From assembly GCA_964446775.1 (NCBI GenBank), contig CAYURA010000001.1, forward strand, positions 1 to 47,731: a stretch of DNA of 47,731 nucleotides, written 5' to 3'. Shown here in pieces: positions 6,101-27,024 of this stretch; within the stretch, counting starts at the first letter, position 1; each line of letters starts with the position of its first letter. This DNA is from an uncultured Gammaproteobacteria bacterium. GTDB taxonomy: Bacteria > Patescibacteriota > Patescibacteriia > Patescibacteriales > UBA12465. The position numbers and the translations under genes were made by a program. The notes beneath the pieces were generated by a model, which saw only the letters and a program-made list of their open reading frames with translations, made no database searches and was not told where the DNA came from.

Positions 6101-8481
6101 GTAGAACTAGCTAAAATGGCCTTCCCTGTAAAATTATTGTTTAATTCACTAGAGTCAATGATCTCAGCTGTACCAGTCGCTCCTGGAGACCAAACAGTCC
6201 AATAATTATTGATCCTACCCGATGTAGACTTATCACCTATCTCATCAGCGGCAAAATCAGCTCCCATAATTAAATTAACCTTAGATCCTTGCTGTACCCT
6301 CATAAGTTCATGACAGCCCTCAGAGTCAGCTGAACAATTTCCTAATTTATCATTAAAGTAGGGGTTAAAGAAAGGATTAGCAGACCAAGTTATTTGACCA
6401 GTGCTTGTACTATAGCTACCATGGGTAGAATAGCGCTGACAGCCAACCGAATCAGCACTACAACCGCTATAATCAAGAGTATTTTCTAAATAGGAAACCT
6501 TCTTGCCATCAGCATCATAGAAGGAGCTACAAGTATTATTAATTGGTTCACAAGTAGGAGAGTTAAAATTCCAAGTGCTTTGCTCAGATAGACAATAGCC
6601 ATAAGTTTCACAGCTGCCATCAGCATTCTCATTAATACAAGTTTTCTCATCTCCGCAATAGTCTTCTGCTCTAGTAATTGATATTTCATCACGCACAGCC
6701 TTATCTTCATAATAACTAGGAATAACATTAATATTTAAAAGCTGTGAACTAAAACCCTGAGCAGAACAATAGTTAAGTGGCGCTTTTAGCACCCAATCTG
6801 GGTCAACTAAACCTCGACACCAACCTTGATCAGCTACACTAAAGCCAGAACTATAGGAATTATGTTCATCATGAGCGCTAAAGCAAGATACCAAGTCCAT
6901 TAGGGTAGCTTTTTTATTATTAGAAGCTGCTATCTCCCAAGTTAGAGGAACTATACGATATTTTCTCAGAATTTGAATATTTCTTAAATTATAGGTACCC
7001 TCTGAAAAGTCAGTTGTAAATTGCCAATCAGCATGCAAACTACCTTGCTTCATTGCCTCAGCTACAGTTAATTTATCAATTGCTCCTTGCATAAAACGAT
7101 CATCAATTACGCATTCAGTTGGTCCTGGATTTTTTCGATCCCGACAAGCATTTAAAGATGCTAGAATATCGTAATCGCCTTTAATACTAAAATCAGGCTC
7201 AATAATCTTAGCTAAACTCTCTACAACCTTTCCTTCGCCATAGCGTATTTGAGGATCATAATCAGGATTTTTAAAGTCATTAGCATTAGAAGTACTTTTA
7301 ATAACATCCTTACCTAAATTACTCATTTGTGTATTAAAGAAACTAATTGCTAATTGGTTTAAGAAGACATTAGCTGCATCAATTAAGGCATCACCAGTAA
7401 ATTGTCCCATATTATTAATATACCCTTGCTCAGTCATCTCAAGTTTTCTTTGAGGATCTTTTGGTGTTCCGATCATGTTCCCAGCAATATCTCTTAAATC
7501 TAAATACCCATCATCAGCAATTAATTTCTTGTCAAATTCTTTTATAGCTTTCTCTTCATTCTGTTTTTGACCAACACTCATTTGATAGAAAATACCCAAA
7601 TCATTTGAATTTGGATTAAAAATATTTGAAAACTTTTGTAAAAAATGAGGGTCAGTATAATATTCATGTTGGCGTTTATATTCATCTTCCCAATTCTTCA
7701 CCATCTCTGAAGCTACGCAATTAGGTGCTTGTGGCCTTTGATTGTCTACTAAATTTAAAGCAATTCTTAACTTAAAATCTATAGATGAAGGTTCACAAAG
7801 CAATGGCGCTAAAGGAGATTCAGCTACTTGAACTGATTGAGTCACTCCATCTCCACCAGTCATAACCCCACTACATTGCATTAATTCATCATAGCAAGAT
7901 TTTTCAATATCAAGGGGGAGCCAAATATCCAAACATTCATTAAAGCAAGCTCCATATAATATGAAATCTGGTATTTTATCACATTTAGAAAAACACGCGT
8001 CTTGTTCATCGGCCTTCCTTTCAGGACAAGCATCATAAGCCTTCTTACACTGCTCGTTCTGTTTAGTCCCCTTTCCATCAGTTTTAAAATCAGCATTATT
8101 CCAATTTTTAACAGCTGATTCTAAAAAATCACCAGCGGCTTCATCACCTATTTTACCTAAATAGGTGCCCCAATCTTCAGTCACAAATAATGGTTTTTGG
8201 CCCTTACCACCAGAGCCAATCCATTTAGCGCTATCATAAGCAATTTTATTCATCGCCTTTCTAATTGCAGTTTGAAGCGCAGCTGCACCACCTTTTTCAT
8301 AGGCTTTTTTTGCAAAATCAGTAATTGGTTTTAGAATATTGGCAATCCCTTGATTAACGTCTTGTGCATAAACAACTCGTGGTATAAGTAAAGAAAAAGA
8401 AAATGAAAAAACTAAAATAAGTAGGAATAGAAAGGCTCGATATCTTAAGCGAGCTTGATTAAATTTAGAGCGCTTAGGCAT
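124..8481 (-). CDS. Giant (2785 aa) secreted cysteine-rich modular surface protein; no named family recognised for the whole protein
   Basis: Uninterrupted 8.36-kb ORF. Basic N-terminus plus hydrophobic helix ending VVYA|QD (signal peptide or anchor). About 106 Cys by hand count, clustered in linker blocks. Long Cys-free beta-sandwich-like blocks. C-terminal PKD-like domain. TAA stop. Confidence 0.85.
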   Translation of the reverse strand: MPKRSKFNQARLRYRAFLFLLILVFSFSFSLLIPRVVYAQDVNQGIANILKPITDFAKKAYEKGGAAALQTAIRKAMNKIAYDSAKWIGSGGKGQKPLFVTEDWGTYLGKIGDEAAGDFLESAVKNWNNADFKTDGKGTKQNEQCKKAYDACPERKADEQDACFSKCDKIPDFILYGACFNECLDIWLPLDIEKSCYDELMQCSGVMTGGDGVTQSVQVAESPLAPLLCEPSSIDFKLRIALNLVDNQRPQAPNCVASEMVKNWEDEYKRQHEYYTDPHFLQKFSNIFNPNSNDLGIFYQMSVGQKQNEEKAIKEFDKKLIADDGYLDLRDIAGNMIGTPKDPQRKLEMTEQGYINNMGQFTGDALIDAANVFLNQLAISFFNTQMSNLGKDVIKSTSNANDFKNPDYDPQIRYGEGKVVESLAKIIEPDFSIKGDYDILASLNACRDRKNPGPTECVIDDRFMQGAIDKLTVAEAMKQGSLHADWQFTTDFSEGTYNLRNIQILRKYRIVPLTWEIAASNNKKATLMDLVSCFSAHDEHNSYSSGFSVADQGWCRGLVDPDWVLKAPLNYCSAQGFSSQLLNINVIPSYYEDKAVRDEISITRAEDYCGDEKTCINENADGSCETYGYCLSEQSTWNFNSPTCEPINNTCSSFYDADGKKVSYLENTLDYSGCSADSVGCQRYSTHGSYSTSTGQITWSANPFFNPYFNDKLGNCSADSEGCHELMRVQQGSKVNLIMGADFAADEIGDKSTSGRINNYWTVWSPGATGTAEIIDSSELNNNFTGKAILASSTASTTSLYSNNITPLVPADLNIDSGETYTLSADVYLKTGSQVRAVLGDDYLAAAQVGTSSDWQHLSVTRDLSEKPLSELAFLISAHNESAGATEFAVKNLKLEMNSYDSGFSAYGTSKIYEKLIPKYLWNTCYEDPNSSKPDYRLKINAPLVCNNYVRQCNIDEAGCNHYTQVRTGFSVAAKTITTDYCDANCDGYNLYISRDNYFYSPQAEKMIPKNSQSCGALAVGCSEFTNLDEVAGGGETRAYYSQLKQCIKPGNECDEFYHWVGTEESGYQLKSVTLKTNASGTPFSTNDDSGTCNNISFNLTPSDPGFNPDCREYYNKEGDIAYRLTAHTVTCSEDCYSYRLSENNIDRTIISNNDCNDVDGHWDATRLQCYVCKNGGEWSDYHQACLYQAIPSESTSCQALDNGCREYNGSLGNNTRLIFANSFDYGLEGWEDGYGDKPLHSPVANSNNGQSMMYDKGANSPVPNLNPSPIVQLNRLINQANASTTPPSYIKKEVAYSVQTGKSYTLKFTASAATNTNVSIAFSNSSELATSSTSYFMAGVSNTFVVRGDKEWRSFELNLAELDHSVNAEEALIIKADNDFYIDNLILTEITDRYYLIRGTSQVPNICYYDILDRYQGSDYNLGCSAYLDRNQVPHYLRQFTKLCQNSSVGCEKMIDTANYDSFKANIWKDADDDKVCEADEPGCIKVEGDRFIYAVYDKTKMCNSADLGCSLLGQAVDSAHNLNWSDVYKLNNPNKYDSIICDYVDDGCEAWNDFDGGGVSYFKKPGTNLCTYRNSNDPETPGKNWYKAPVLRCDINNNGKIDTNELGTKICTSADDCPGNRPCIMDNNDYDCPVSYFETFGYGGGGRQVPVPSESVAVCEDVQSGCSEYIDPISSFSSNLIIDPSYENNSNAWIGSGSGSYQEVGIEPNSLYIFSVNTTETSLAYDVWVESSGVSVLQDDNYLGTSNPNLTISSSTPTQRYIFHSRNNSSVTVYGAHINHEIVLKKAIIAYQFKQQVNKDKGLCNGLVNQKNGCILLNERIMNGGEGLLPLTGYYNAATSTSGKKPVNCTDGNCDSNVLLKVRPDRTCASWLDCKTYAYDEAGEKVCYSVGECNVLDDKGECVNFIKANNEIVTPENNSNLGKLTGYSVLDKYSLSRMGEVGINTTAHFNFEEASPSLYCKTKDWKDCNFDVSLQYDSIVNSPTNAPTDYPAEGRAYLKVMQGHRIVPHSINSPITIPTSSANYLNFLVNTKDSGVKAEVSIYGYKIGNNYKDEVPIAREVFSSNQGWERKIMKFNGSGDIHADKIVIFLSASSTESGAEERYVYFDDINIEPVLDVGGGKYIAKECRLYPSQDSVSCSSVNSKVIQDGWLGYCLEHDPANKNVCLLWYPVDKISASLKSGRSSIGYQGAFPLNYCTEANGNFELVEKRTANKFWDDGDGNHPFDGYPDWQTGPLPGPTGISITGDCSWYGLPNIHCPEGYYIVNQIQVENNRAWCVPRLDKMLTYEGKRIVTKKIIPAAEGSLCEITYYEGWAPYNGLYMKPYNSNCADDQLVLCTNLDESKNANPPVRIFDKDYPTIIEDELGLISSSDPEKVYYPTCNRFTQVVDSAGNNQAWANRVSKSSAYLFETPLFFRSGNTYYGTSNQCDYQKEECIAKCEICETHLQLDCCQEDGICRGLCHDQYVGWCYKTSSILTSIPCDDPICLGNSNPCTRRDLFKFTAYGRNRELIPFGAATIPDNYNIFASPRIKLRNRYSDQINQIAFAGRPYGCRGEGCKNIGYCSLNPNVYCILDEEESVVNSFINENSCGSVNGTCIPLWDGKYLYEKTKDLSFKADNILKNIFLTSYEGYLFENDSYKSERGYDSDDPADKSSYYKSIYNGGNCTTSDCHKTENDDTFSKYWKYILPKIANVKVNGSSLSNPLTVSPGIYKLSFTTTIDKEQQPLRDLIIDWGDGSQQNLVNQNNRPNDSDPHVLYHYYTSSQTITIKIKVTDNWGFYHNWSL
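127..405 (-). other. PKD-like Ig-fold domain at the C-terminus of the giant protein (aa ~2693-2785)
   Basis: VSPGIYKLSFTTT...IIDWGDGSQQ...PHVLYHYY...ITIKIKVTDNWG fits the PKD pattern (WDFGDGS ... H.Y ... Y.V.L.V.D..G). The DWGDGS codons were checked at 268..285. Boundaries are approximate. Confidence 0.6.
2128..2649 (-). other. Cys-free block 4 of the giant protein (aa ~1945-2118), predicted beta-sandwich / CBM-like module
   Basis: No Cys between C1970 and C2129. Strand-like alternating pattern (KAEVSIYGYKIG, WERKIMKFNG, KIVIFLSASS, RYVYFDDINIEPV) resembles jelly-roll carbohydrate-binding modules. Boundaries are approximate. Confidence 0.4.
3112..3441 (-). other. Cys-free block 3 of the giant protein (aa ~1681-1790), predicted beta-sandwich module
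   Basis: No Cys between C1668 and C1806. SYENNSNAWIGSGSGSYQEV, SLYIFSVNTTE, YDVWVESSG, QRYIFHSRNNSSVTVYGA. Boundaries are approximate. Confidence 0.35.
4309..4833 (-). other. Cys-free block 2 of the giant protein (aa ~1217-1391), predicted beta-sandwich / CBM-like module
   Basis: No Cys between C1205 and C1408. FANSFDYGLEGWEDG, GKSYTLKFTASAATNTNVSIAF, KEWRSFELNL, DNDFYIDNLILTE (typical CBM-type F..G...W start and F.iDn..l end). Boundaries are approximate. Confidence 0.45.
5791..6291 (-). other. Cys-free block 1 of the giant protein (aa ~731-897), predicted beta-sandwich / CBM-like module
   Basis: No Cys between C723 and C925. NNYWTVWSPG, GETYTLSADVYLKTGSQVRAVLG, DWQHLSVT, ATEFAVKNLKLE. Boundaries are approximate. 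Confidence 0.45.
8365..8481 (-). other. Signal peptide / N-terminal membrane anchor of the giant protein (aa 1-39)
   Basis: MPKRSKFNQARLRYR (basic) + AFLFLLILVFSFSFSLLIP (hydrophobic) + RVVYA|QD (A-x-A-like cleavage context). Confidence 0.7.
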
Positions 8482-8510: not shown

Positions 8511-9203
8511 TTACTCTTCAGATGGATCTATTGATAATTCTTTTGGTAACTGTGATTCATTTAAACCCTCTCTATAAATCACCAACAGTTCTTCGTCACT
8601 TAAATTATTTATTAAATTGGTATCGATTCCACTAGTAATCAGTAGTGCTCTAATATTTTGAACATTAGCCTCACCACTAAGCAGAGTCATCATTACTTCC
8701 TCTAATTCATCGGGCGTATCTGAAGACAGCTCAGAAATTTCTGGAACAAGAACAATGCTATCTTGAGGTTTCTTTACTATTTCAATCTCATTGCTACAAT
8801 CTTGTCCCTCAGGACATAGTGGATCCGTCCCAGTTCTTACCTCATCATAATCACTAATGCCATCGCCATCAGTATCAACTAAATAAGGAGAAGTATGGTA
8901 AATGTTCATTTCTTCGGCATCAGTTAAGCCATCGCCATCAGTATCTAGATTGCCATCAGCATGCAAACTCGCTAATTGCTGAAACTCATCAATATGGCTA
9001 GCAAAATCTTTAGGTTTTTTATCTCCATAATCAAAGACACTAACTAAACGATAATTAATTTGCCAGAACCATAAGAATAGAATTGAAATACTAAGGAAAA
9101 CCATGAAAATAAAAGCATTCTTCTGTTTTTTAGGTAAACTTTTCAAGAAAGAAGAACGAGGCTCTTTTTGCCTAGACTCATTATCATTATTATTTAGAGG
9201 CAT
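8511..9203 (-). CDS. Single-pass membrane protein with two bacterial thrombospondin type-3-like Ca-binding repeats and an acidic tail
   Basis: Basic N-terminus then TM helix AFIFMVFLSISILFLWFW. DTDGDGLTDAEE and DTDGDGISDYDEVRTGTDP (D-x-D-x-D-G-x-x-D-x-x-E repeats, aa 83-132, nt 8808..8957). Ends 29 nt upstream of the giant gene on the same strand. Confidence 0.75.
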   Translation of the reverse strand: MPLNNNDNESRQKEPRSSFLKSLPKKQKNAFIFMVFLSISILFLWFWQINYRLVSVFDYGDKKPKDFASHIDEFQQLASLHADGNLDTDGDGLTDAEEMNIYHTSPYLVDTDGDGISDYDEVRTGTDPLCPEGQDCSNEIEIVKKPQDSIVLVPEISELSSDTPDELEEVMMTLLSGEANVQNIRALLITSGIDTNLINNLSDEELLVIYREGLNESQLPKELSIDPSEE

Positions 9204-13340: not shown

Positions 13341-13369
13341 TAGCCACAAAAAACTGAATATGTTATAAT
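13341..13369 (+). promoter_or_regulatory. Candidate sigma70-type promoter for the dsbA-like/por unit
   Basis: TAGCCA - 17 nt - TATAAT with an upstream TG (tgtTATAAT), about 60 nt before the ATG at 13430. The AT-rich background makes chance matches likely. Confidence 0.35.
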
Positions 13370-13429: not shown

Positions 13430-14185
13430 ATGAGTTTAGAAGAACGGGTAAACTATTTAAAATTAAAAGAAAAACATAAACGAAAATTGAAACCCTGGTA
13501 TAAAAAATGGTGGGGCTTAATTTTAATTGCGGTCTTTGTTTTGATTATTTCTGGCTTGATCGCTTCTGGCATTTATCTTGTTAAAGAGGTTAAAAGAATT
13601 CAAGCAGGAAACCTGGATATTGAAACTCAAAAAGAACTAGATAGAATTACTCAAGCAATTGATGGGACTAGTGAACATTTCAGTTTAGGGCCGATCAACG
13701 CGCCAATAAAAATTATGGCGTTTCTTGATTATTCTTGTCCTCACTGCAATGAAGCAATGGCAACTATACATAATTTAAACAAAAAATATCCCACTGAAGT
13801 TCGTATCAGTATAAGAGACTATCCAGCCCTAAGGATGGCTTCAATTAATCAGGCATTGGCCGCACACTGTGCTGGCGAACAAAATAATTTCTGGCAAATG
13901 AGTGATAGTTTATTCGAAAACCAAGATATTCTAATTAATTTAAACGAAAGTAATATTGATTTAGAATTAAAAAATATTGCTAAGGGACTAAAACTAGATG
14001 AAGCTCAATTTGAGGATTGCTTAAAGAACAAAAAATATCTCTATCGCTTAAATGATAATTTCGCAGATGCAGAGTTTTTAGATGTTAAGGGAACCCCTAC
14101 TTGGTTTATCAATCGTTATAAAATAACAGGCTATTATCCTGAGGAGAACTTTGTTAATCTAATTGAAGGCCTTTTAGCTCTATAG
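13430..14185 (+). CDS. Membrane-anchored DsbA-family thiol:disulfide oxidoreductase
   Basis: N-terminal TM helix WWGLILIAVFVLIISGLIASGIYLV. Thioredoxin-fold active site DYSCPHCNEA. DsbA-like length (251 aa). Stop lies 1 nt before porG. Confidence 0.85.
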   Translation: MSLEERVNYLKLKEKHKRKLKPWYKKWWGLILIAVFVLIISGLIASGIYLVKEVKRIQAGNLDIETQKELDRITQAIDGTSEHFSLGPINAPIKIMAFLDYSCPHCNEAMATIHNLNKKYPTEVRISIRDYPALRMASINQALAAHCAGEQNNFWQMSDSLFENQDILINLNESNIDLELKNIAKGLKLDEAQFEDCLKNKKYLYRLNDNFADAEFLDVKGTPTWFINRYKITGYYPEENFVNLIEGLLAL

Positions 14186-14186
14186 T

Positions 14187-14762
14187 ATGATTAGCTTTCG
14201 TATTCATGGTCGAGGTGGACAAGGAGCAATTGCTGCTTCTGAGTTAATTGCCTTGGCTGCTTTTCACCAAGGTTTCTATGCTCAATCATTGCCTTTCTTT
14301 GGAGTTGAGAGAAGCGGAGCTCCAGTTCAAGCTTATGTCCGCATCAGTGACAGAGCAATTATTACTCACTCACAAGTCAAGGAGCCTGATTATTTGATTA
14401 TTCAGGATGATACTTTAATTGCTGTTAAAGATGTTTACTTAGGACTGAATCCAAAAACTAAAATATTAATCAATAGTCAAGAAACCAGTGAAATTTTAAG
14501 AAAAAAAATCCGTTTGAAAATAAAAAATAACGACATTCTGACGGTTAATGCAAGTCAAATTGCTCTAAATATTATGAGAAGAAATATTATTAACACTTCT
14601 CTTCTCGGTGCTTTTTCAGCTCATTATAATTTACTTAGTAAAGAAAATTGTCAACAAGCAATTATAGATAAATTTAGCAAAAAAGGCCGTGGCACTGTTA
14701 AACTAAATCAAAAAATATTTCTTTTCACTTATGATCTCTGCCAAAAAAATGCCAATAACTAA
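14187..14762 (+). CDS. porG: Pyruvate/2-oxoacid:ferredoxin oxidoreductase, gamma subunit
   Basis: FRIHGRGGQGAIAASELIALAAF is the typical gamma-subunit N-terminus; 191 aa; canonical position before delta. Confidence 0.88.
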   Translation: MISFRIHGRGGQGAIAASELIALAAFHQGFYAQSLPFFGVERSGAPVQAYVRISDRAIITHSQVKEPDYLIIQDDTLIAVKDVYLGLNPKTKILINSQETSEILRKKIRLKIKNNDILTVNASQIALNIMRRNIINTSLLGAFSAHYNLLSKENCQQAIIDKFSKKGRGTVKLNQKIFLFTYDLCQKNANN

Positions 14763-15015
14763 GCGCCCCCTAACTAAAGCTGGTTCTGCCCAAGAGAATA
14801 AAACTGGATCTTGGCGAAAAGAACATCCAGTAGTTGATAAAAATAAATGTATTTCTTGCTCTTTATGCGCTAAACTTTGTCCCGACAATTGTATTTACAT
14901 GCGTGAAACAAAAAAAGGTCACCTCATTGCTGAGCCCAATTTAGACTATTGTAAAGGCTGTGGCATTTGTGCTGAAGAATGCCCCGTCAAAGCGATTAGA
15001 ATGGTCAAAGATTAA
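14731..15015 (+). CDS. porD: Pyruvate:ferredoxin oxidoreductase, delta subunit (2x[4Fe-4S] ferredoxin)
   Basis: CISCSLCAKLCP and CKGCGICAEECP cluster motifs. The true start may be the internal ATG at 14749 (MPITKRP). Confidence 0.88.
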   Translation: MISAKKMPITKRPLTKAGSAQENKTGSWRKEHPVVDKNKCISCSLCAKLCPDNCIYMRETKKGHLIAEPNLDYCKGCGICAEECPVKAIRMVKD

Positions 15016-15021
15016 AATATT

Positions 15022-16158
15022 ATGCCCTTAAAAAGGAATAAACAATTCATCAGCGGCTCTCAAGCAATTGCTCAAACTATTAAGGAACTCCAAGTAGACG
15101 TAATTTCTGCTTACCCAATTACTCCACAAACTCATATATTGGAAGAGTTAGCTCAGTTTAAAGAGGATCATCAAGCTGATTATGAATATATCCGGGCTGA
15201 AAGTGAATTTGCGGCTGCTTCTATTATACTCGGTGCTAGTGCTGCTGGTGGTCGCACTTATAGCGCCACTAGCTCCCAGGGAGTCCTGCTTATGATGGAA
15301 GTTTTATTCAATGCTTCGGGACTAAGATTACCCCTAGTAATGACTGTTGCTAATCGAGCTTTAAGCGCACCTATTAATATTTTTAATGATCACAGCGATG
15401 CCATGGCTATGAGAGACTCAGGTTGGCTAATGTTCTTTGCTGAAAATCATCAAGAAGCTATTGATTTACATATTATTGCCTATAAAATAGCTGAAAGTTT
15501 AGAATTACCAGTAGCTATAAATGTTGATGGTTTTATTATCACTCATGCCTATCAAGAAGCCTTTATTCCTAATAGGAAAATCATTGAATCATATCTACCA
15601 AAATACAAACCTATTCCTAACAGTTATTTAGACTCAAATAGGCCTGTTAGTTTAGGAGGATACTATGATTCCGTGCATTATCAAAAAACTCGCCAAGAAT
15701 TAAGCAAAGATATCCAAAAATCACAGAAAAAAGTCAGTCAAGAATTTAAAGCCTGGCAAAAAATATGGCCAACTAAAAAAGCCCTTAAGTCAACTTATGA
15801 TGATGGCTTAATTGAATATTGTGGCCCTAAAAAGCCAAAAGCTATTCTCATTGCTCTTGGCTCTCTTTGTGGGACGATTAAAGAAGCCATTAAGAGCGAG
15901 ACTAACGTAGGTATAATTAAGATTAGAAGTTTTAGACCATTTCCAAAAGATAGTTTAAATAAAATTATTCCAATTAATTGTCAGCTGTATATTTTAGAAA
16001 AAACTATAGCCATTGGTAGTTTTGGACCACTATATCAAGAAGTGATTTCTAGTCTTAATCATTTTAAAGGCAAAGCTACTAATTATATATTAGGCTTAGG
16101 TGGTCAAGATATTAATGAAACAGATATTTTGAATATTATTAAGGCTAATAGAAGCTAG
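15022..16158 (+). CDS. porA: Pyruvate:ferredoxin oxidoreductase, alpha subunit
   Basis: GSQAIAQTIKELQVDVISAYPITPQTHILEEL N-terminal signature; 378 aa. Confidence 0.9.
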   Translation: MPLKRNKQFISGSQAIAQTIKELQVDVISAYPITPQTHILEELAQFKEDHQADYEYIRAESEFAAASIILGASAAGGRTYSATSSQGVLLMMEVLFNASGLRLPLVMTVANRALSAPINIFNDHSDAMAMRDSGWLMFFAENHQEAIDLHIIAYKIAESLELPVAINVDGFIITHAYQEAFIPNRKIIESYLPKYKPIPNSYLDSNRPVSLGGYYDSVHYQKTRQELSKDIQKSQKKVSQEFKAWQKIWPTKKALKSTYDDGLIEYCGPKKPKAILIALGSLCGTIKEAIKSETNVGIIKIRSFRPFPKDSLNKIIPINCQLYILEKTIAIGSFGPLYQEVISSLNHFKGKATNYILGLGGQDINETDILNIIKANRS

Positions 16159-16180: not shown

Positions 16181-17185
16181 ATGAAAAAAAGCCATTGGAA
16201 GAAACAATTTACCATATTCATTGCTTTATTCTTGTTTTCTTTTATATTCTCTTTTAATTTAGCTCAGGGTGAGTTATTGCCTAGTGTCAAAAATCCAATT
16301 GTATTTCAAGCCCAAACTACCATTCCTGGTGTTTTTACAAAAGGTGAAAAAATTCCAATAAAAAAACAAGATACCAGTTTTATTGCAGATATGATTAAGA
16401 ATTTCTATAGTTACGGTATTGGCATCGCTGGCATATTGGCCGCTATTATGTTGATGGCTGGTGGACTTGTTTGGCTAACTTCAGCTGGCAGCAGTGACAA
16501 AATTTCCCAGGCTAAGAATCTCATGTCTGGCAGTATTGTTGGCCTAGCATTACTCTTTAGTTCCTGGATAATGCTCAGAACTATTAATCCAGCTTTAGTA
16601 GATTTCAGGATAACAAGTATTCATACGATCGAAAAAGTTACAAGGGGTTGTTGTGAATATAATAATAAAGCTGAAAGCATGGCTACTAAGGATTGTAAAT
16701 CACAAAATGGAAAATTTTTTGCACCTGATGACCAAGGTTTTTATAGTCCATATAAAGGGAAATGCTCATTAAATAAAGTTTCTTGTAATATTGGCACTAG
16801 TCCGTATACTGAGAATGTTTATCTTTGTTTTGAATCTGATTTAAAAGTAGCACCTGGAAATAACCTTGGACAAGAACTTAAACCTGGAAGGTGCGCTAAT
16901 TATAAGGAATGTGATAATGTTTTTACTAGTTGTCTTGATGTTGAAGATGGTAAACCTTGCAAAGACGCAAAAGGCAGACTAGCAGTGGTAAATAGTTATT
17001 GCTTCAACATGATGTGTTATTTAGGGCATGGGAAAGAAGGCGAGCCTTGCGGTCAAAAAGGTGGCAGCTGTATCGCCACTTCTAAGTGTAAAGATTTGGG
17101 GTTGCCAGGTGACTATGATAACGATTCCGGTGGTCGGATATGTGAAAATAGTAGCTTAAAGTGTTGTTACAAAGTTAACAAGTAA
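16181..17185 (+). CDS. Exported protein: signal peptide + VirB2/TrbC-like (T4SS-pilin-like) TM hairpin + 18-Cys C-terminal domain
   Basis: Signal peptide ...FSFNLAQ|G. Hairpin YGIGIAGILAAIMLMAGGLVWLTSAGSSDKISQAKNLMSGSIVGLALLFSSWIML (two TM helices joined by a short polar loop). All 18 Cys lie in aa 156-334. Inserted between porA and porB with 22-nt and 5-nt gaps. Confidence 0.7.
   Translation: MKKSHWKKQFTIFIALFLFSFIFSFNLAQGELLPSVKNPIVFQAQTTIPGVFTKGEKIPIKKQDTSFIADMIKNFYSYGIGIAGILAAIMLMAGGLVWLTSAGSSDKISQAKNLMSGSIVGLALLFSSWIMLRTINPALVDFRITSIHTIEKVTRGCCEYNNKAESMATKDCKSQNGKFFAPDDQGFYSPYKGKCSLNKVSCNIGTSPYTENVYLCFESDLKVAPGNNLGQELKPGRCANYKECDNVFTSCLDVEDGKPCKDAKGRLAVVNSYCFNMMCYLGHGKEGEPCGQKGGSCIATSKCKDLGLPGDYDNDSGGRICENSSLKCCYKVNK
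16376..16636 (+). repeat. Paralogous pilin-hairpin module, copy 1 (aa 66-152 of the 334-aa protein)
   Basis: Aligns without gaps to 18435..18695. Roughly 55-60 percent amino-acid identity by hand, including the identical run GIAGILAAIMLMAGG. The DNA is also visibly similar (ggcat.gctggcat.tt.gccgc.attatg.t.atggctggtgg). Confidence 0.8.
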
Positions 17186-17190
17186 ATTAA

Positions 17191-18042
17191 ATGTCTGTGA
17201 GCTACCAGAGCAATCTCACTCCAGGCCATAATGCTTGTAGTGGTTGTGGACAATTAAGCGCAGTTCAAGCAGTTATGCGAGGACTAACAAAAGATACTAT
17301 CCTGGTAAGTTCAACTGGTTGTTTAGAGGTAACTACCACTGCTCACCCTCAAAGTGCTTGGAATTTGGCCTGGTTCCATTCTCTATTTGAAAATGCTGCT
17401 CCAGTAGCTAGTGGCATCAAAGCGATGTTAAATAAAAAAAAGAAAAAAACTAAAGTTGTGGTCCAAGCTGGAGATGGAGCTACTTTTGACATTGGACTAG
17501 GTTTACTTAGTGGCCTTTGGGAAAGAAATGATGAGGTGCTATATATTTGTTATGACACTGAAGTCTATTCCAACACTGGCATTCAGGCTTCTGGAGCCAC
17601 TCCTTTTGGTGCTAGCACTAAAACTAATCCGGGTAGCAATAAACAAATGAAGAAAGATATGATAGCAATCGCTTTAGCTCATAAATTAAATTATGTCGCT
17701 CAAAGTAGCGCTGGTTTTCCTGATGATATTACTAGAAAGATTAAAAAAGCCTTAAGTGCTACTGGCCCAAGTTACATCCAAATATTAGCTCCATGTGTTC
17801 CTGGCTGGGGTATACAAACTAATGAAAGCATTAAAGCAGCTAAGCTAGCAGTTCAAAGTGGGCTATATCCTCTACTTGAATACGAAAATGGAAAGTTGAT
17901 TAGCTCTAACATTAAAACTAGTGAAAGTAAATTAGTACTACAATATCTCCGACTTCAAAGAAGATTTAAACATCTAACAGATGACGAAGTAAAAGAAATA
18001 ATTAGATTAGCTGAAATAAATAAGAAAAAATATAAAATATGA
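17191..18042 (+). CDS. porB: Pyruvate:ferredoxin oxidoreductase, beta subunit (TPP-binding)
   Basis: GHNACSGCGQ, TPP motif QAGDGATFDIGLGLLSG, YDTEVYSNTG; 283 aa. The TGA stop overlaps the next ATG (ATGA). Confidence 0.9.
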   Translation: MSVSYQSNLTPGHNACSGCGQLSAVQAVMRGLTKDTILVSSTGCLEVTTTAHPQSAWNLAWFHSLFENAAPVASGIKAMLNKKKKKTKVVVQAGDGATFDIGLGLLSGLWERNDEVLYICYDTEVYSNTGIQASGATPFGASTKTNPGSNKQMKKDMIAIALAHKLNYVAQSSAGFPDDITRKIKKALSATGPSYIQILAPCVPGWGIQTNESIKAAKLAVQSGLYPLLEYENGKLISSNIKTSESKLVLQYLRLQRRFKHLTDDEVKEIIRLAEINKKKYKI

Positions 18043-19196
18043 CTCAAAATTTAAATAATGTGGTAAAAATAATTATCCTGAGTTCTCTAACTTTCGTTTT
18101 AACTTTAATATCAACTAATGATGTGCAGGCAAAAGCTTACACTTGCACTTGGCGCATAAAAACAACCTCAATGCAGGGTGCTGGTGTGCTAGATAAAGGA
18201 TGCTATTCGAATGAACTTTTTTCAAAATATGAAAATTGTGACCCAGAAACAAAACCACCTGATGAGGGAACCAATAGTGCCATAGAAAAAAAAATTGTAT
18301 GTTGTTGCCCTGATCCTGGTTATAATAAGCCCGAACCTAAAGCTGATATAATTATCCCTAGCTTATCCATTAAAATTAATACCATTGAACTAAGTCAAGA
18401 AATTTTTTGTCAGGATGAAGATTGCTATTATCCCTGGATAGCCGAATATATTAATGGAATATATAAATATGGATTTGGCATAGCTGGCATCTTAGCCGCC
18501 ATTATGCTCATGGCTGGTGGTGTCATTTGGTTAACTTCCGCTGGCGATGCTTCTAAAATAGGTCAAGCAAAGAACTTGATCACTGGAAGCGTAATTGGCT
18601 TGATTGTTCTTAGCACTAGTTATATTATTTTAGAAACAATAAATCCAGAATTAACCAATCTAAAACATATTACTATTAAAGGGATAGAAAAAATTGCGCC
18701 AAGTGAAGTAAAACGTCCTAGTGATGAAGCTGAGAATCCATATCAAGAGGGCTGCGATGCTTCTAGAAATGGAGATTATGAGATTTGTAAACAATATGCT
18801 AACGAAACACCTAAAGATATGTTAAAGATTTCTGGCACTTCTCAATACGCTAAAGAAGAAGTGGTAAATAAGTATCTATTAGCCATGGAATGTGTTAAAG
18901 ATAAAAATGATGGTAAAAAATTATTTACCGTAGGAGTTGCTTGGCGCTCACCAAAAAAACAATTAGAGCTATTTGAGAGTTTAGGTCACCCCAAAGCAGC
19001 CTATCCGTGTTGTTCTAATCATGGAAAAGGCACTGCCTTAGATTTAAATAGAACAGACGGAGTTAAGATGACCTGGGGATATAATGAGAGCTCAGGATTA
19101 TTAGAATGCATGAATGCTCAAGGTTTATACGCTAAATTAAAAGGCCAGAATGGAGACCCTGACGAACCATGGCATTGGTCTCTTAGTGGAAGATAA
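18039..19196 (+). CDS. Exported protein: signal peptide + 8-Cys N-domain + VirB2/TrbC-like TM hairpin + M15 (VanY/D-Ala-D-Ala carboxypeptidase-like) peptidase domain
   Basis: Signal peptide ...NDVQA|KA. Hairpin YGFGIAGILAAIMLMAGGVIWLTSAGDASKIGQAKNLITGSVIGLIVLSTSYIIL. M15 motifs AWRSPKKQLELF, CCSNHGKGTALD (S-x-H-x-x-G-x-A-x-D) and DEPWHW (E-x-x-H). Confidence 0.75.
   Translation: MTQNLNNVVKIIILSSLTFVLTLISTNDVQAKAYTCTWRIKTTSMQGAGVLDKGCYSNELFSKYENCDPETKPPDEGTNSAIEKKIVCCCPDPGYNKPEPKADIIIPSLSIKINTIELSQEIFCQDEDCYYPWIAEYINGIYKYGFGIAGILAAIMLMAGGVIWLTSAGDASKIGQAKNLITGSVIGLIVLSTSYIILETINPELTNLKHITIKGIEKIAPSEVKRPSDEAENPYQEGCDASRNGDYEICKQYANETPKDMLKISGTSQYAKEEVVNKYLLAMECVKDKNDGKKLFTVGVAWRSPKKQLELFESLGHPKAAYPCCSNHGKGTALDLNRTDGVKMTWGYNESSGLLECMNAQGLYAKLKGQNGDPDEPWHWSLSGR
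18435..18695 (+). repeat. Paralogous pilin-hairpin module, copy 2 (aa 133-219 of the 385-aa protein)
   Basis: See copy 1 at 16376..16636. Confidence 0.8.
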
Positions 19197-19213: not shown

Positions 19214-19245
19214 AAAAAAGCTATTCAATTGAATAGCTTTTATAC
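19214..19245. terminator. Bidirectional rho-independent terminator between convergent units
   Basis: Perfect palindrome AAAAGCTATTC-AATT-GAATAGCTTTT (11-bp stem, 4-nt loop), flanked by an A-run on one side and a T-run on the other. Lies between the stop at 19196 (+) and the stop at 19281 (-). Confidence 0.65.
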
Positions 19246-25306: not shown

Positions 25307-25516
25307 CTATGAATATAAGATAGAAATAATGGCTGTTAATAACCAGAGTAATGCCAAAAAAGAACTATTAAAATATAAGCTAAAAAGGCCAGGAACTAAA
25401 AACTCACTAATTAAACCTAAAACTAAAAGAGCTGTTAAAAAATAAAAAAACTTGATAATTAATTTTTTTAAAAAAATATTTCTCTTAATTGTATTTTTAA
25501 ATCTCAACATAATCAC
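25307..25516 (-). CDS. Small two-TM membrane protein (hypothetical)
   Basis: Two hydrophobic helices (FFYFLTALLVLGLISEFLV; FLALLWLLTAIISIL). The track start is GTG at 25516 overlapping the upstream TGA; an ATG at 25510 is the likelier start. No family recognised. Confidence 0.45.
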   Translation of the reverse strand: MIMLRFKNTIKRNIFLKKLIIKFFYFLTALLVLGLISEFLVPGLFSLYFNSSFLALLWLLTAIISILYS

Positions 25517-27024
25517 TTTTTTAAACTAAAAATCATAGATTTTATCTTCTCTAATAAGCTAGGGCCGGCATATTTTATTTTAATCTTCTTTAGCTCAATG
25601 AACACCTCTTCATTATCAAATAGTCTTAAGCCTGGAACTGAGAGAATTAAATTATATTGATTATTTTCACGATACAAGTCAGAAGTCTTAAAACTTAAAT
25701 TGCTACGATACCAACCATCACCAAGCGGTTCAGCATCTTCATAACTAGCTAAAATATAATCAATCCTATCATCTTTTAAAGAAAATCGATCAAGACGTAA
25801 ATAACTTGGATTAAGTAGTCCTAAATCAGAAAAAGAGAAAATACCATCATTGGCTAAAATGGGGCCGCCACGTTCTAGCTTAATTTCCTTGATTGAGCCT
25901 AAGCCAGCTTCAATTTCATATTGTTTGTATATTTCAGATAATTCTACGTCAATACCATCAAATCTAATCGTTTGTAAATCTAAAGGACTCAGAGCTTTAA
26001 CTTGTAAATAATTTGAATCTGTATAAACCTTAACTTGTTCATCAGTAAATGGCCACATCTTATTTATCACACTTAAATAAGATGAATTAACTCCTAAATC
26101 CATTATCACTATATCATCATTATTCCTTAGTTCTAGTTTATATAAACCAGTTGCTAGATTTTCTTGTCTTAGGCTAAAAGGGATATCTTCACTCTCTTCA
26201 CCGCTTAATTCTTTTTCAGCTCGTAAATCTTCAATCTTTAAACTAGCCACTACTTGCTTATCCTTTAAAACTATTAACTCAAAATCATCCAAATCTTTAT
26301 TCTCATTAAGATCCATAAAAGAACCTTTTAAATCTAAAAATCCATGAGCTAAATAAATATAAAACTGATGTGATCCTCTCAAAGCATAAGCTAGGTTAAT
26401 TTGATTTGACTCTAAAATATTTCCCAACTGCTTAGCTGGAATAATATCATCATTAATATTATATAAAGCTAGACAATCATCAAGTTCACAAAGTTTTTGA
26501 TCATTTTGTTTTAAGGCCATTATAAACTCAGCTAAGCTAGTAAACTTTTGCTCTTTCTGTCTTAAGCTTAAATCACTAGAACCAATAGTTGACCAAGTAT
26601 CGAATGACTCCTCTAATAGATAATTATAGACTGGCTTTAATTGATAGCGCCAAAGCTTAGAATCAGCTAAAAACCCAGCTTCAAAAATTGCTTGCTTGTC
26701 GGTTAAATGAGGGCGATATATTATTTCTAAATCTATTTTTTGAAATGCTCGCGGACTAAAAATAGATAAATATAATGGATCAGCTAAAATTCTAAGTTCT
26801 CCATTCAGACCATACTCATAGCGGTCATTTGGCGACGGCTCGGTTAAACAATCAGGCCTAAATAAATTTACTAATTTTTTATTACTATAATTTTTTTGGC
26901 AAGTCCATGTACCCCGTGGAGCTAAGCACTCTATAAATAAAAAAAAGACTAGCAAAAAAAATAATGTTATAAAGAATATATTCAATTTAGATGTTTTAAC
27001 CTTCAATTTCATAATTAAAATCAT
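25513..27024 (-). CDS. Membrane-anchored extracytoplasmic protein, 503 aa (hypothetical)
   Basis: N-terminal TM helix IFFITLFFLLVFFLFI followed by a long soluble region with no motif I recognise. TGA stop. Confidence 0.65.
   Translation of the reverse strand: MILIMKLKVKTSKLNIFFITLFFLLVFFLFIECLAPRGTWTCQKNYSNKKLVNLFRPDCLTEPSPNDRYEYGLNGELRILADPLYLSIFSPRAFQKIDLEIIYRPHLTDKQAIFEAGFLADSKLWRYQLKPVYNYLLEESFDTWSTIGSSDLSLRQKEQKFTSLAEFIMALKQNDQKLCELDDCLALYNINDDIIPAKQLGNILESNQINLAYALRGSHQFYIYLAHGFLDLKGSFMDLNENKDLDDFELIVLKDKQVVASLKIEDLRAEKELSGEESEDIPFSLRQENLATGLYKLELRNNDDIVIMDLGVNSSYLSVINKMWPFTDEQVKVYTDSNYLQVKALSPLDLQTIRFDGIDVELSEIYKQYEIEAGLGSIKEIKLERGGPILANDGIFSFSDLGLLNPSYLRLDRFSLKDDRIDYILASYEDAEPLGDGWYRSNLSFKTSDLYRENNQYNLILSVPGLRLFDNEEVFIELKKIKIKYAGPSLLEKIKSMIFSLKK

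Follow-up and report, generated by a model that had tools for sequence, protein, structure and literature searches.

Paralogous VirB2-like hairpins carry different cargo, including exchangeable predicted peptidoglycan hydrolases, at a recurrent Patescibacterial locus

The window analyzed here, a 47,731-nucleotide stretch of DNA from an ultrasmall bacterium of Falkowbacteria type, encodes two proteins that share a two-helix hairpin and differ in what is attached to it: protein A (16181..17185, + strand; 334 amino acids) and protein B (18039..19196, + strand; 385 amino acids). The two belong to the Patescibacterial VirB2-like ‘T4SS_pilin’ family (PF18895) and go back to an ancient duplication, and the enzymatic head of B has been swapped just after the hairpin in sister species at the same gene position. 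On balance, we favor the reading that the hairpin is a VirB2-like handle holding disulfide-stabilized surface domains, including interchangeable peptidoglycan hydrolases.

BLASTP aligns A and B with 57/115 identities (50%, E=5e-32). The hairpin core aligns without gaps, residues 67–152 of A with 133–218 of B, and 51 of its 86 positions are identical (59.3%), within the 55–60 percent estimated in an earlier note on this DNA. The ungapped alignment claimed there stands, but its register (A 66–152 with B 133–219) is one residue off and as written gives 10% identity. The identical run GIAGILAAIMLMAGG and the loop WLTSAG..K..QAKNL occur in A and B alike, as reported in that note. By hydropathy, the hydrophobic segments span residues 79–97 and 114–132 in A and 147–165 and 180–198 in B, separated in each by a polar loop of 17 residues with a net charge of +1; AlphaFold2 (AF2) places the helices at 66–100 and 105–135 in A and at 132–166 and 171–201 in B. 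The proposed architecture of a signal peptide, two hydrophobic helices, and a short polar loop is seen in the sequence and hydropathy of both proteins. The hairpins score 30.6 and 30.9 bits against PF18895 (gathering threshold, 26.6 bits) and cover nearly the full 71-position model (A 70–134 on positions 7–70; B 133–197 on positions 4–67), so that the profile search bears out the suggested T4SS pilin-like family. A six-frame HMM search of the whole window found hairpin copies in A and B alone. In related loci, PF18895 was matched at E≤0.01 by 60/60 genes at the B position and 57/57 at the A position. More widely, the hairpin profile matches 45,447 representative clusters, and the family includes polypeptides with 2–9 tandem hairpins. 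In 92 of the 98 single-hairpin top matches, at least 100 amino acids follow the hairpin.

The duplication that gave rise to A and B is ancient, and the two are true paralogues. The DNA of the hairpin cores is similar, as the earlier note had remarked (60.9% identity), but no more so than protein conservation demands: third codon positions are 40.7% identical and no identical run exceeds 11 nt. A recent duplication, or gene conversion still under way between the copies, might be read from the 15-residue identical run and from the confinement of the 59% identity to one segment. We reject this explanation as scarcely tenable, because synonymous sites are saturated (pS 0.72; dS about 2.4) and, across all 8 genomes compared, A-type hairpins fall in a clade apart from that of B-type hairpins. 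The window A hairpin is no nearer to that of window B (54% identity) than to B of other species (41–54%). The comparison of synonymous and nonsynonymous sites proposed earlier as a test for gene conversion thus refutes it. Among orthologues, conservation in both proteins peaks in the hairpin, with mean pairwise identities of 68.8% in A and 60.3% in B, as compared with 52.7% for the enzyme domain and about 29% for the Cys-rich cargo. A paralogue dN/dS of about 0.16, with dS saturated, likewise shows constraint on the hairpin. Passive anchors usually show less conservation than the rest of the protein, and the conservation of the hairpin exceeds the needs of such an anchor.

Protein A begins with a predicted Sec-type signal peptide (16181..16270, + strand; residues 1–30), composed of an n-region (MKKSHWKKQ), a hydrophobic core, and a c-region (NLAQG) preceding E31. 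This cleavage context is signal-peptide-like by sequence and hydropathy, and orthologues have AxA-type c-regions. A short conserved N-terminal stretch leads to the hairpin (16379..16600, + strand; residues 67–140), which consists of an amphipathic lead-in, TM1, the loop TSAGSSDKISQAKNL, TM2, and a TINP motif. The C-terminal part is a β-rich domain (16643..17182, + strand; residues 155–334) with a GCC...LxCCY frame and conserved Cys columns. All 18 Cys of A fall within residues 157–329, matching the count given previously. Although AF2 models this domain with a pLDDT of about 80–89, Foldseek returned nothing at E≤0.001 in PDB or BFVD (best, E 4.0 in PDB and 0.38, prob 0.16, in BFVD), and none of 57 positional orthologues of A has a Pfam match in its cargo. 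The domain fits no family or fold known so far; its probable role is at the surface or in binding, with a structure locked by disulfides.

Protein B likewise has a signal-peptide-like N-terminus (context DVQA before K). This is followed by a β-rich domain, with strands modeled by AF2 (18132..18425, + strand; residues 32–129), which has C-x-W, CCC, and C-x4-C motifs before the hairpin and conserved Cys columns at C36, C55, C67, C88–90, C124, and C129. The eight Cys noted earlier in this domain are confirmed within residues 36–129, and six more lie in the C-terminal domain. The N-terminal domain has no match in Pfam and belongs to no known family. After the hairpin (18435..18656, + strand; residues 133–206) and a linker comes a predicted M15B (VanY/VanXY/LdcB-like) zinc peptidoglycan peptidase (18735..19193, + strand; residues 233–385). 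Its motifs S326-x-H328-x2-G-x-A-x-D335 (nt 19014–19043) and E376-x2-H379 (nt 19164–19175), along with R303, are invariant columns across 35 homologues. The domain is modeled at a pLDDT of mostly 82–98, and Foldseek matches it in PDB to VanXYc (4mur, E=3.8e-6) as well as LdcB (4mph), VanY (5hnm), and ChiX (5opz). Pfam VanY scores 16.9 bits on window B, below the 25-bit cut-off; orthologues reach 2.4e-13. As judged from catalytic residues and predicted fold, the C-terminus of B is an intact M15B zinc peptidase, in agreement with the M15 assignment made from the sequence. The cargo of the two proteins differs as claimed, an orphan 18-Cys domain in A and an 8-Cys domain plus M15B in B.

The head of B is variable. 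Among 60 genes at the B position, the cargo comprises VanY (12), NlpC/P60 (10), 3D (9), M15 (7), M15_4 (2), Amidase_5 (2), and SLT_3 (1); C39_2, Amidase_2, and a weak glucosaminidase match also occur there. Window B and the B protein of one sister species (locus L005) are 55% identical over residues 30–219 and unrelated beyond. With at least eight hydrolase families on it at one chromosomal position, the hairpin is strongly supported as a reusable module, as the earlier note had suggested.

Beyond what that note described, A and B are interleaved with genes of a 2-oxoacid/pyruvate:ferredoxin oxidoreductase (POR), downstream of dsbA. The first gene, dsbA (13430..14185, + strand), encodes a membrane-anchored DsbA-like thiol:disulfide oxidoreductase (Pfam Thioredoxin_4, 1.9e-25; DSBA, 6.7e-11) with a basic N-terminal tail, a TM segment at residues 30–48 forming an N-in anchor, and CPHC at residue 103. 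The POR subunit genes porG (14187–14762), porD (14731–15015), and porA (15022–16158), all on the + strand (Pfam POR, 3.2e-35; Fer4 families; POR_N, 3.6e-67; PFOR_II), are genomic context outside the hairpin system. Between A and B lies porB (17191..18042, + strand; TPP_enzyme_C, 2.1e-21), which encodes the TPP-binding β subunit and whose stop overlaps the start of B (ATGA, 18039–18042). Intergenic gaps from dsbA to B are −4 to +22 nt. The best consensus match to a promoter upstream of dsbA (13341..13369, + strand; TAGCCA-17-TATAAT with an extended −10 TG) is a candidate start of the transcription unit. A palindrome with an 11-bp stem, AAAAGCTATTCAATTGAATAGCTTTT (19216..19241, no strand assigned), found by pattern match between the convergent genes B and rnhA, is likely to be a bidirectional terminator closing the unit. 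The gaps, the ATGA overlap, the promoter-like site, and the palindrome suggest that dsbA to B are co-transcribed as a single operon. The unit dsbA-porG-porD-porA-A-porB-B recurs in about 60 Falkowbacteria-type species at a stable chromosomal site amid housekeeping genes, near murJ and a Mur ligase, and dsbA is syntenic across all related loci. At one locus (L071) the porA-A-porB-B block is intact although dsbA-porG-porD is inverted; another (L047) has dsbA and three hairpin genes without por genes; and gene B is absent from two species (L029 and L065). The interleaving with POR genes is not accounted for by the handle model.

From hydropathy and charge counts, the cargo domains of both proteins are predicted to lie outside the membrane. 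The number of Cys is even in each flanking domain and zero in the hairpin, a pattern that, with a membrane-anchored DsbA (CPHC) heading the operon, agrees with the external cargo predicted earlier and suggests that the flanking domains are disulfide bonded. In the mechanism we propose, A and B would leave via Sec, using their N-terminal signal peptides. The two hydrophobic helices would reside in the cytoplasmic membrane and their short basic loop, which has an invariant Lys, would face the cytoplasm; both flanks of the hairpin would therefore lie on the outer face. DsbA from the same transcription unit would form their disulfides. B would display its active-site-intact M15B zinc peptidase, which may trim or cut peptidoglycan stem peptides, and A its orphan 18-Cys β domain, which most likely serves in binding or shielding. 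The head of B is a cassette, represented in sister species by NlpC/P60, 3D, M15_4, amidase, lysozyme-like, or C39-like domains. The hairpin is probably more than an anchor and may pack specifically with other hairpins, whether itself, its paralogue, or short VirB2-like pilins and a T4SS encoded elsewhere in the genome. Such packing would bring the wall-cutting enzymes to sites at which the envelope, or the wall of a host cell, has to be opened.

The handle may work with a remote T4SS; we put a link of A and B to a T4SS at slightly under an even chance. Pfam scans of all ORFs of at least 90 amino acids, along with a hydropathy check, found no VirB4, VirD4, or VirB6 in the 47-kb window, in accord with the earlier note. 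The sole FtsK-family ATPase (36333–38891) has alpha, gamma, and 4TM domains and is a chromosomal FtsK. In about 60 related loci, the 10 kb to each side hold no T4SS genes either. VirB4 is encoded elsewhere in two of three related genomes checked, being listed as present for GCA_000999715.1 (the L065 genome) and GCA_002841655.1 (the L020 genome), and one incomplete related MAG is listed as VirB4-negative (PMC12102498 Tables S1 and S3). A Nomurabacteria genome encodes a VirB2-profile protein with NlpC/P60 two genes from virB4 (PMC12102498 Tables S1 and S3). Homology to canonical Agrobacterium-type VirB2 is not directly demonstrable (hhalign probability about 7%), a profile search found no pilins among PDB sequences, and Foldseek likeness to the T-pilus and an archaeal conjugative pilus is weak (E>1).

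A and B might instead be polymerizing pilins, minor or tip subunits that a remote VirB4-type T4SS extracts and builds into a pilus, displaying a Cys-rich adhesin domain and the hydrolase to contact and breach a host cell wall. Membership of both in PF18895, the strong conservation of the hairpin, the presence of VirB4 in genomes of the lineage, and diversifying heads that look like host-range adaptation all fit this. In the solved conjugative pili (F- and T-pilus), both pilin termini are on the outer surface, so terminal cargo is geometrically possible. We nevertheless consider it unlikely that A and B are polymerizing pilins. As major subunits, they would crowd a helical filament with 95–180 amino acids of cargo on one or both ends of a 70-amino acid subunit, and virB4 never adjoins their genes in about 60 loci. 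The 2–9 tandem hairpins of some relatives suit membrane bundles better than a filament assembled one subunit at a time, and to our knowledge pili have yet to be observed in this lineage.

It is also rather improbable that A and B are housekeeping envelope proteins, in which the hairpin is a mere double-pass anchor of pilin ancestry and B an autolysin or carboxypeptidase acting on the cell’s own peptidoglycan, with no T4SS or host connection. The fixed core locus among housekeeping genes near murJ and the Mur ligase, its distance from virB4, the absence of B from some species, and the classic role of LdcB and VanY homologues as trimmers of self-peptidoglycan are in keeping with this explanation. 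Against it, the hairpin is conserved (60–69%) above the catalytic domain (53%) and A has no enzymatic domain. Moreover, housekeeping trimming needs one bond specificity, whereas carboxypeptidase, endopeptidase, amidase, and lytic transglycosylase-like heads interchange here.

The conserved position of A between porA and porB and the overlap of B with the porB stop, kept in about 60 species and unbroken in L071 despite the inversion, could mark the two as translationally coupled accessory or membrane-tethering subunits of POR. This is very improbable: the L047 locus has hairpin genes without por, the cargo is predicted to be extracytoplasmic and disulfide bonded, that of B is a peptidoglycan peptidase swapped for other hydrolases, and a loop of about 17 residues alone would face the cytoplasm, the site of POR. 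It is hardly credible that the pair is what remains of a phage lysis cassette in which endolysin domains were fused to a holin-like two-TM module. Amidase, M15, NlpC/P60, lysozyme, and Amidase_5 (‘bacteriophage peptidoglycan hydrolase’) domains next to two TM helices recall holin/endolysin repertoires, but PHROG gave no holin or endolysin match and IMG/VR viral contigs no hairpin relatives. The site is fixed, with housekeeping flanks and no phage genes, in about 60 species; holins lack this combination of a signal peptide and an N-out/C-out layout; and the hairpin falls in PF18895.

Among known systems, the handle proteins A and B resemble the Patescibacteria VirB2-like pilins and ‘VirB2 arrays’ of PF18895 (Quinonero-Coronel et al. 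2025, PMC12102498), one of which, the pilin array of Southlakia epibionticum, is essential (Wang et al. 2023, PMC10633639). They share with these the phylum, the family, a Sec signal peptide ahead of a two-helix hairpin, and several divergent paralogues per genome. Published arrays are described as small pilins with a within-array identity of 25% on average and 54% at maximum, and a pilin gene is near virB4 in 1135/1948 assemblies (PMC12102498, PMC10633639). In contrast, A and B are 334 and 385 amino acids long with large exported Cys-rich and enzymatic domains, and occupy a fixed housekeeping locus, in a POR operon behind dsbA and never near virB4 in about 60 species. The literature searched on these pilins holds no discussion of a pilin-hydrolase fusion, apart from one row in Table S3 of PMC12102498.

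VirB2/TrbC/TraA (PF04956; T-pilus, F-pilus) similarly have a signal peptide and a hydrophobic hairpin with a short basic loop, and hhalign (probability about 7%) aligns a G-x-x-W that closes helix 1. Structural likeness is weak (8exh, TM 0.57; 8dfu, TM 0.69, normalized to target length). PF04956 has no match in window A or B and is matched by 2/102 close relatives. Unlike these pilins, A and B have no neighboring VirB3, VirB4, or VirB6, have large fused domains, and belong to a monoderm organism. The head of B is like VanY/VanXY/LdcB (MEROPS M15B LAS) in fold (E=3.8e-6), SxHxxGxAxD, ExxH, and a conserved Arg; it differs in being about 19–20% identical with a Pfam score below cut-off, in having six conserved Cys, and in lying C-terminal to a pilin-like hairpin and a Cys-rich domain.

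The VirB1 analogues of monoderm T4SSs (PrgK of pCF10, TraG of pIP501, CwlT of ICEBs1, and TcpG) are, like B, TM-anchored exported wall hydrolases with modular heads (SLT, NlpC/P60/CHAP, LytM). They differ from B in being encoded inside a T4SS cluster, with a single N-terminal anchor and no pilin hairpin; A and B are remote from any T4SS, and relatedness is compared at the level of hydrolase family. Most Patescibacteria with VirB2 homologues lack a recognizable VirB1, and the VirB1 role is therefore vacant in them. Polymorphic toxin and effector systems (for example, LXG, Rhs, and CdiA) join a conserved trafficking region at the N-terminus to toxin heads that can be exchanged at the C-terminus. 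B differs from these in that no immunity gene follows it (the next gene is the convergent rnhA), its heads are cell-wall hydrolases only, with no orphan head cassettes, and it has no identified dedicated secretion machinery. As in polymorphic toxins, a constant part of B, its Cys domain and hairpin, is joined at a sharp junction to unrelated enzymatic heads at one locus.

In the interval 16376–18695, the hairpin of gene A (16181–17185, + strand; 334 amino acids) lies at one end and that of gene B (18039–19196, + strand; 385 amino acids) at the other. BLASTP aligned the two proteins over a single significant segment (57 of 115 residues identical, E=5e-32). The earlier note had described a gap-free match between two paralogous membrane hairpins carrying different cargo. 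The shared hairpin stands; the register does not, being one residue off and giving 10% identity as written. The corrected ungapped core, residues 67–152 of A and 133–218 of B, is identical at 51 of 86 positions (59.3%) and contains GIAGILAAIMLMAGG and WLTSAG..K..QAKNL. A six-frame HMM search found hairpin copies within the window in A and B only. Around the hairpin, A has 18 cysteines, all in residues 157–329, and B has eight in residues 36–129 plus six in its C-terminal domain. Since the BLASTP segment, corrected core, HMM copies, and cysteine counts agree, the pairing of two paralogous hairpins with different cargo is real.

Both hairpins scored above the gathering cut-off (26.6 bits) of the Pfam T4SS_pilin family PF18895 and covered nearly the full 71-position model (A, 30.6 bits, positions 7–70; B, 30.9 bits, positions 4–67), in agreement with the pilin-like assignment made from the sequence. 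PF18895 was matched at E≤0.01 by all 57 A-position and all 60 B-position orthologues (those before and after porB in related loci), some at under 26.6 bits. NCBIfam gave A and B a sub-threshold match only, to a Mycoplasma ICE pilin-like family. By hydropathy windows and charge counts, A and B each have a signal-peptide-like N-terminus and then two transmembrane (TM) segments. The signal peptide c-regions are of the AxA type in the orthologue alignment, the inter-TM loop is 17 residues in length with two lysines and one aspartate, and AF2 models have a helix-turn-helix at residues 66–135 of A and 132–201 of B. Hydropathy and charge counts predict that both flanks lie outside the membrane and the loop inside, whether the signal sequence is cleaved or not. 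This layout agrees with the even number of cysteines in each flanking domain, the lack of any in the hairpin, and the presence of DsbA in the operon. It is also the established topology of VirB2 and TraA.

Direct comparisons with canonical VirB2 gave no demonstrable similarity. Neither A nor B matched PF04956 (TrbC/VirB2) at E≤1, and hhalign of the hairpin profile against Agrobacterium VirB2 alone or a three-sequence VirB2/TrbC alignment returned an uninformative probability of ~7%. Against PDB sequences, the hairpin profile found no pilin, its sole match being a chance ABC-permease (E=0.9), and B alone found nothing at E≤1. Foldseek superimposed the hairpin on the T-pilus (8exh_A; TM 0.57, E=9.6) and the A. 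pernix pilus (8dfu; TM 0.69, E=4.5), with both TM scores normalised to target length; neither match is significant, as helical hairpins are generic. PF04956 was matched by two of 102 close relatives (up to 6.7e-8), and published tables list Patescibacterial proteins that match both the T_virB2 profile and PF18895 (PMC12102498). The connection of the hairpin to VirB2 would thus be an indirect one, through these two relatives and the doubly matching proteins. We consider it unlikely that A and B are true polymerising minor pilins.

The cargo of B ends in a domain whose S326, H328, and D335 (SxHxxGxAxD), E376 and H379 (E-x2-H), and R303 are invariant in 35 homologues. Its AF2 model (pLDDT mostly 82–98) matched VanXYc in the PDB (4mur, E=3.8e-6, prob 1.00), and also LdcB (4mph), VanY (5hnm), and ChiX (5opz). 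The Pfam VanY family (PF02557) scored 16.9 bits on B of the window (E=0.0056), under the 25-bit gathering cut-off, and reached E=2.4e-13 on its orthologues. The invariant motifs and modelled fold identify the domain as an M15B LAS zinc peptidase with an intact active site, consistent with the M15 peptidase noticed from the sequence. The N-terminal domain of B and the C-terminal domain of A are beta-rich with conserved cysteine frameworks. The A domain (AF2 pLDDT ~80–89) had no family in Pfam, NCBIfam, or PHROG and is an orphan, as its fold matched nothing at E≤0.001 in the PDB (best E=4.0) or BFVD (best E=0.38, prob 0.16). Elsewhere in the window, another exported protein, with LysM and Peptidase_M23 domains (46006–47349, + strand), constitutes a second, conventional cell-wall hydrolase that has no pilin-like hairpin.

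The head of B is exchanged between species. B of the window and its positional orthologue in L005, one of the related loci (numbered L), are 55% identical over residues 30–219 and unrelated beyond, where the window has an M15B head and L005 an NlpC/P60 head. Among 60 B-position genes, we found VanY (12), NlpC/P60 (10), 3D (9), Peptidase_M15 (7), M15_4 (2), Amidase_5 (2), and SLT_3 (1) heads. Peptidase_C39_2, Amidase_2, and a weak glucosaminidase match also occur. Another head, which recurs at the B position in L025, L027, L028, L030, L037, L041, L044, L045, and L055, has the C-terminal sequence ...TGGHLHV(Y/K/Q/R). It had no Pfam match in L027, the case tested, and its terminal HxH bears a tentative resemblance to that of LAS or M23-type metallopeptidases. 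None of the 57 A-position genes had a recognisable cargo family. That at least eight head families follow the same hairpin at one locus bears out the proposal that the hairpin is a reusable module.

The module is also widespread. Homology searches yielded 62 cluster representatives for A and 133 for B, few of which have a name other than 'pilin' or 'hypothetical'. A search built on 11 rows matched the hairpin profile to 45,447 of 1.84 billion cluster representatives at E≤1e-3 (9,101 at E≤1e-10). Of the 98 closest single-hairpin representatives, 92 carry 100 or more amino acids C-terminal to the hairpin, and only three have no long flank. The cargo families recognised in 102 of the closest representatives are nearly all types of cell-wall hydrolase, apart from C39-type cysteine peptidases and a single weak match to Extensin-like_C. 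Some representatives have two to nine tandem hairpins per polypeptide (P0164–P0174, P0192, P0247, P0250, and P0274), as in the 461-amino acid P0165, in which three hairpins precede a C-terminal domain; these tandem polypeptides suggest lateral packing of hairpins within the membrane.

The best-supported mechanism, which we hold to be probable though by no means secure, is that a conserved VirB2-like handle would hold domains stabilised by disulfides at the external face of the membrane, an interchangeable peptidoglycan hydrolase among them. In both families, conservation peaks in the hairpin, where mean pairwise identity is 68.8% in A and 60.3% in B, as compared to ~29% in the cysteine-rich domains and 52.7% in the M15 domain. 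This sequence-specific constraint suggests that the handle packs with other hairpins or with a T4SS, beyond mere anchoring. We consequently regard plain housekeeping autolysins with a passive anchor as a distinctly unlikely description of A and B. A link between the handle and a T4SS is plausible, if not quite probable.

The window is a chromosomal core region of low GC (~35%) that encodes rpoB, rpoC, leuS, lepA, recJ, murJ, ftsK, ruvC, and a Mur ligase. Within it, A and B stand among the genes of the pyruvate/2-oxoacid:ferredoxin oxidoreductase (POR) operon, a setting that the earlier note had missed. The genes, all on the + strand, are a dsbA-like gene at the head of the unit (13430–14185), porG (14187–14762), porD (14731–15015), porA (15022–16158), A, porB (17191–18042), and B. 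From dsbA to B, neighbouring genes are spaced at −32 to +22 nt; the end of porB shares 4 nt with the start of B (ATGA). The promoter-like sequence with the best match (13341–13369, + strand) precedes dsbA, and the only convincing terminator-like palindrome (19216–19241) lies in the 84-nt spacer between B and the convergent rnhA. A basic N-terminal tail, a single TM segment (residues 30–48), and CPHC at residue 103 predict that the DsbA-like protein is an outward-facing, membrane-anchored oxidoreductase.

Pfam scans of the ORFs of the 47.7-kb window detected no VirB4, VirD4, or VirB6, as the earlier note had claimed, and the sole FtsK-family protein is a normal FtsK with 4TM, alpha, and gamma domains. 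Two window ORFs had no Pfam match, and each has one N-terminal TM segment. One is a giant ORF of 2785 amino acids (124–8481, − strand); its N-terminus holds a TM or signal segment, and the product is probably a very large surface protein or adhesin. It adjoins a TSP3-repeat membrane protein (8511–9203, − strand), and both are syntenic in all related loci, where orthologues of the giant ORF span 2568–2829 amino acids and show a faint CBM_4_9 match. The other, a 503-amino acid ORF beside murJ (25513–27024, − strand), has ORFs of similar size (499 and 490 amino acids) at its position in some relatives and a TPR/PMT_2 protein in others.

The arrangement of the locus was compared in a synteny set composed of context look-ups and a hairpin-profile scan of one genome per GTDB species (59 loci), mapped by tblastn; complete relatives are AP029158.1, CP066698.1, and OW818634.1. 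The common order in ~60 loci is leuS-exoIII, dsbA-porG-porD-porA-[hairpin gene]-porB-[hairpin gene], and rnhA-recJ-lepA-murJ. Three further context look-ups, of relatives with C39_2, with Amidase_2, or named 'pilin', led to the same POR locus each time. No virB4, trsD, virB3, or virB6 was found near the locus, either in the window or in the ~60 loci with 10-kb flanks. Lineage-named records are mostly Candidatus Falkowbacteria, which a published table places in class ABY1 (PMC12102498). Many metagenome-assembled genome (MAG) records with the locus are titled 'uncultured Gammaproteobacteria bacterium' (e.g., L012, L016, and L024), another 'Bacillota bacterium', and one protein record 'Clostridia bacterium'. 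These source labels look wrong, as the titles conflict with the gene content and the locus is clearly Patescibacterial.

Several loci depart from the common order. Gene B is missing in L029 and L065, two genes follow porB in L030, L032, and L055, and two precede it in L050. In L071, dsbA-porG-porD is inverted while porA-A-porB-B is kept, and in L047 three hairpin genes come after dsbA and por genes are absent. Judging by these variants, it is dsbA and the hairpin genes that seem to stay together. The location of A between porA and porB, the overlap of porB with B, and the conservation of both in ~60 species might suggest that A and B are accessory subunits of POR. However, the absence of por genes from L047 and the predicted extracytoplasmic location of the cargo make this highly improbable. 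Remnants of a phage lysis module, such as a holin or prophage, have practically nothing to recommend them, as no PHROG matched the hairpin or head and no relative occurs in 2.9 million IMG/VR contigs.

In a hairpin tree of eight genomes, the copies split without exception into two clades by position, A in one and B in the other. The hairpin of A in the window is 54% identical to that of B in the window and 41–54% identical to those of B in other species. Between the two window hairpins, third-position identity is 40.7%, pS is 0.72 (saturated), dN is 0.38, and dN/dS is ~0.16. Because the clades are separate and synonymous sites saturated, the A/B duplication predates the radiation of the lineage, and the similarity of the hairpins is kept by purifying selection, not gene conversion. 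The same two results refute a recent duplication and rule out the gene conversion for which the earlier note had proposed a synonymous/nonsynonymous check.

A T4SS exists in the lineage, as published tables list VirB4 in two locus-bearing genomes, GWF2_43_32 (L065) and HGW-Falkowbacteria-2 (L020). Three related genomes were looked up in these tables, and the third, an incomplete MAG (L059), is listed as lacking VirB4 (PMC12102498). In ~60 loci with 10-kb flanks, the A/B locus is always remote from virB4. Published work records 1,948 Patescibacterial assemblies in which VirB4 accompanies PF18895 and VirB2-like genes, with a pilin gene beside virB4 in 1,135 of these (PMC12102498). Pilin-hydrolase fusions can also adjoin virB4 elsewhere: KKT24894.1 of Candidatus Nomurabacteria, a VirB2-profile protein with NlpC/P60, is gene 645 of GCA_001000035.1, two genes from virB4 (gene 643; Table S3), and is undiscussed in the text of that paper. 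Published surveys count such proteins simply as 'VirB2' (PMC12102498). In Southlakia, the pilin array is essential (PMC10633639); Patescibacterial T4SSs and pilin arrays are essential in the sole species tested, and their function has been described as completely unknown.

A more extended model is doubtful. In it, the VirB2-like hairpin would be a general carrier, by which a T4SS or hairpin self-assembly exports hydrolase heads and the cysteine-rich, adhesin-like domain and positions them against the host wall. Such a polymorphic 'pilin-borne hydrolase' arsenal would serve an epibiotic lifestyle from a single hotspot maintained in the central fermentative POR operon, and it would fill the VirB1 role that is missing from most Patescibacterial T4SSs.

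VirB2-like pilins of Patescibacteria, including multi-copy arrays, are already known. The literature searched on PF18895, T4SS_pilin, and pilin-hydrolase fusions contained no account of the hairpin joined to exported cysteine-rich domains and swappable hydrolases, of the deep A/B paralogy, or of the fixed place behind dsbA inside the POR operon in ~60 species. The locus is easily recognised and joins, across a whole lineage, a pilin module to enzymes of known chemistry, the peptidoglycan hydrolases, which opens a family of unknown function to biochemical testing. Should the hairpin dock heads to a T4SS, an equivalent of VirB1 would have gone unnoticed in most Patescibacteria; if the heads target host walls, the host range of uncultivated Falkowbacteria could be read from the swapping pattern. 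Even conservatively, thousands of Patescibacterial 'pilin' annotations would denote membrane-anchored hydrolases or cysteine-rich surface proteins, given the 45,447 profile matches and the cargo on nearly all of the closest ones.

In size, A (334 amino acids) and B (385 amino acids), with flanking domains of 95–180 amino acids, differ from the small stand-alone PF18895 pilins. B is similar to the VirB1-type hydrolases of monoderm T4SSs (PrgK, TraG, and CwlT) in being, by its predicted topology, an exported, membrane-anchored peptidoglycan hydrolase. Unlike these, which are encoded within a T4SS cluster, B has no T4SS genes in its window or in syntenic loci. B also differs from polymorphic toxins in having no immunity gene after it, the spacer leading directly to the convergent rnhA. 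It nonetheless shares with polymorphic toxin-type effectors a constant N-terminal region, a sharp junction, and interchangeable C-terminal heads at one locus.
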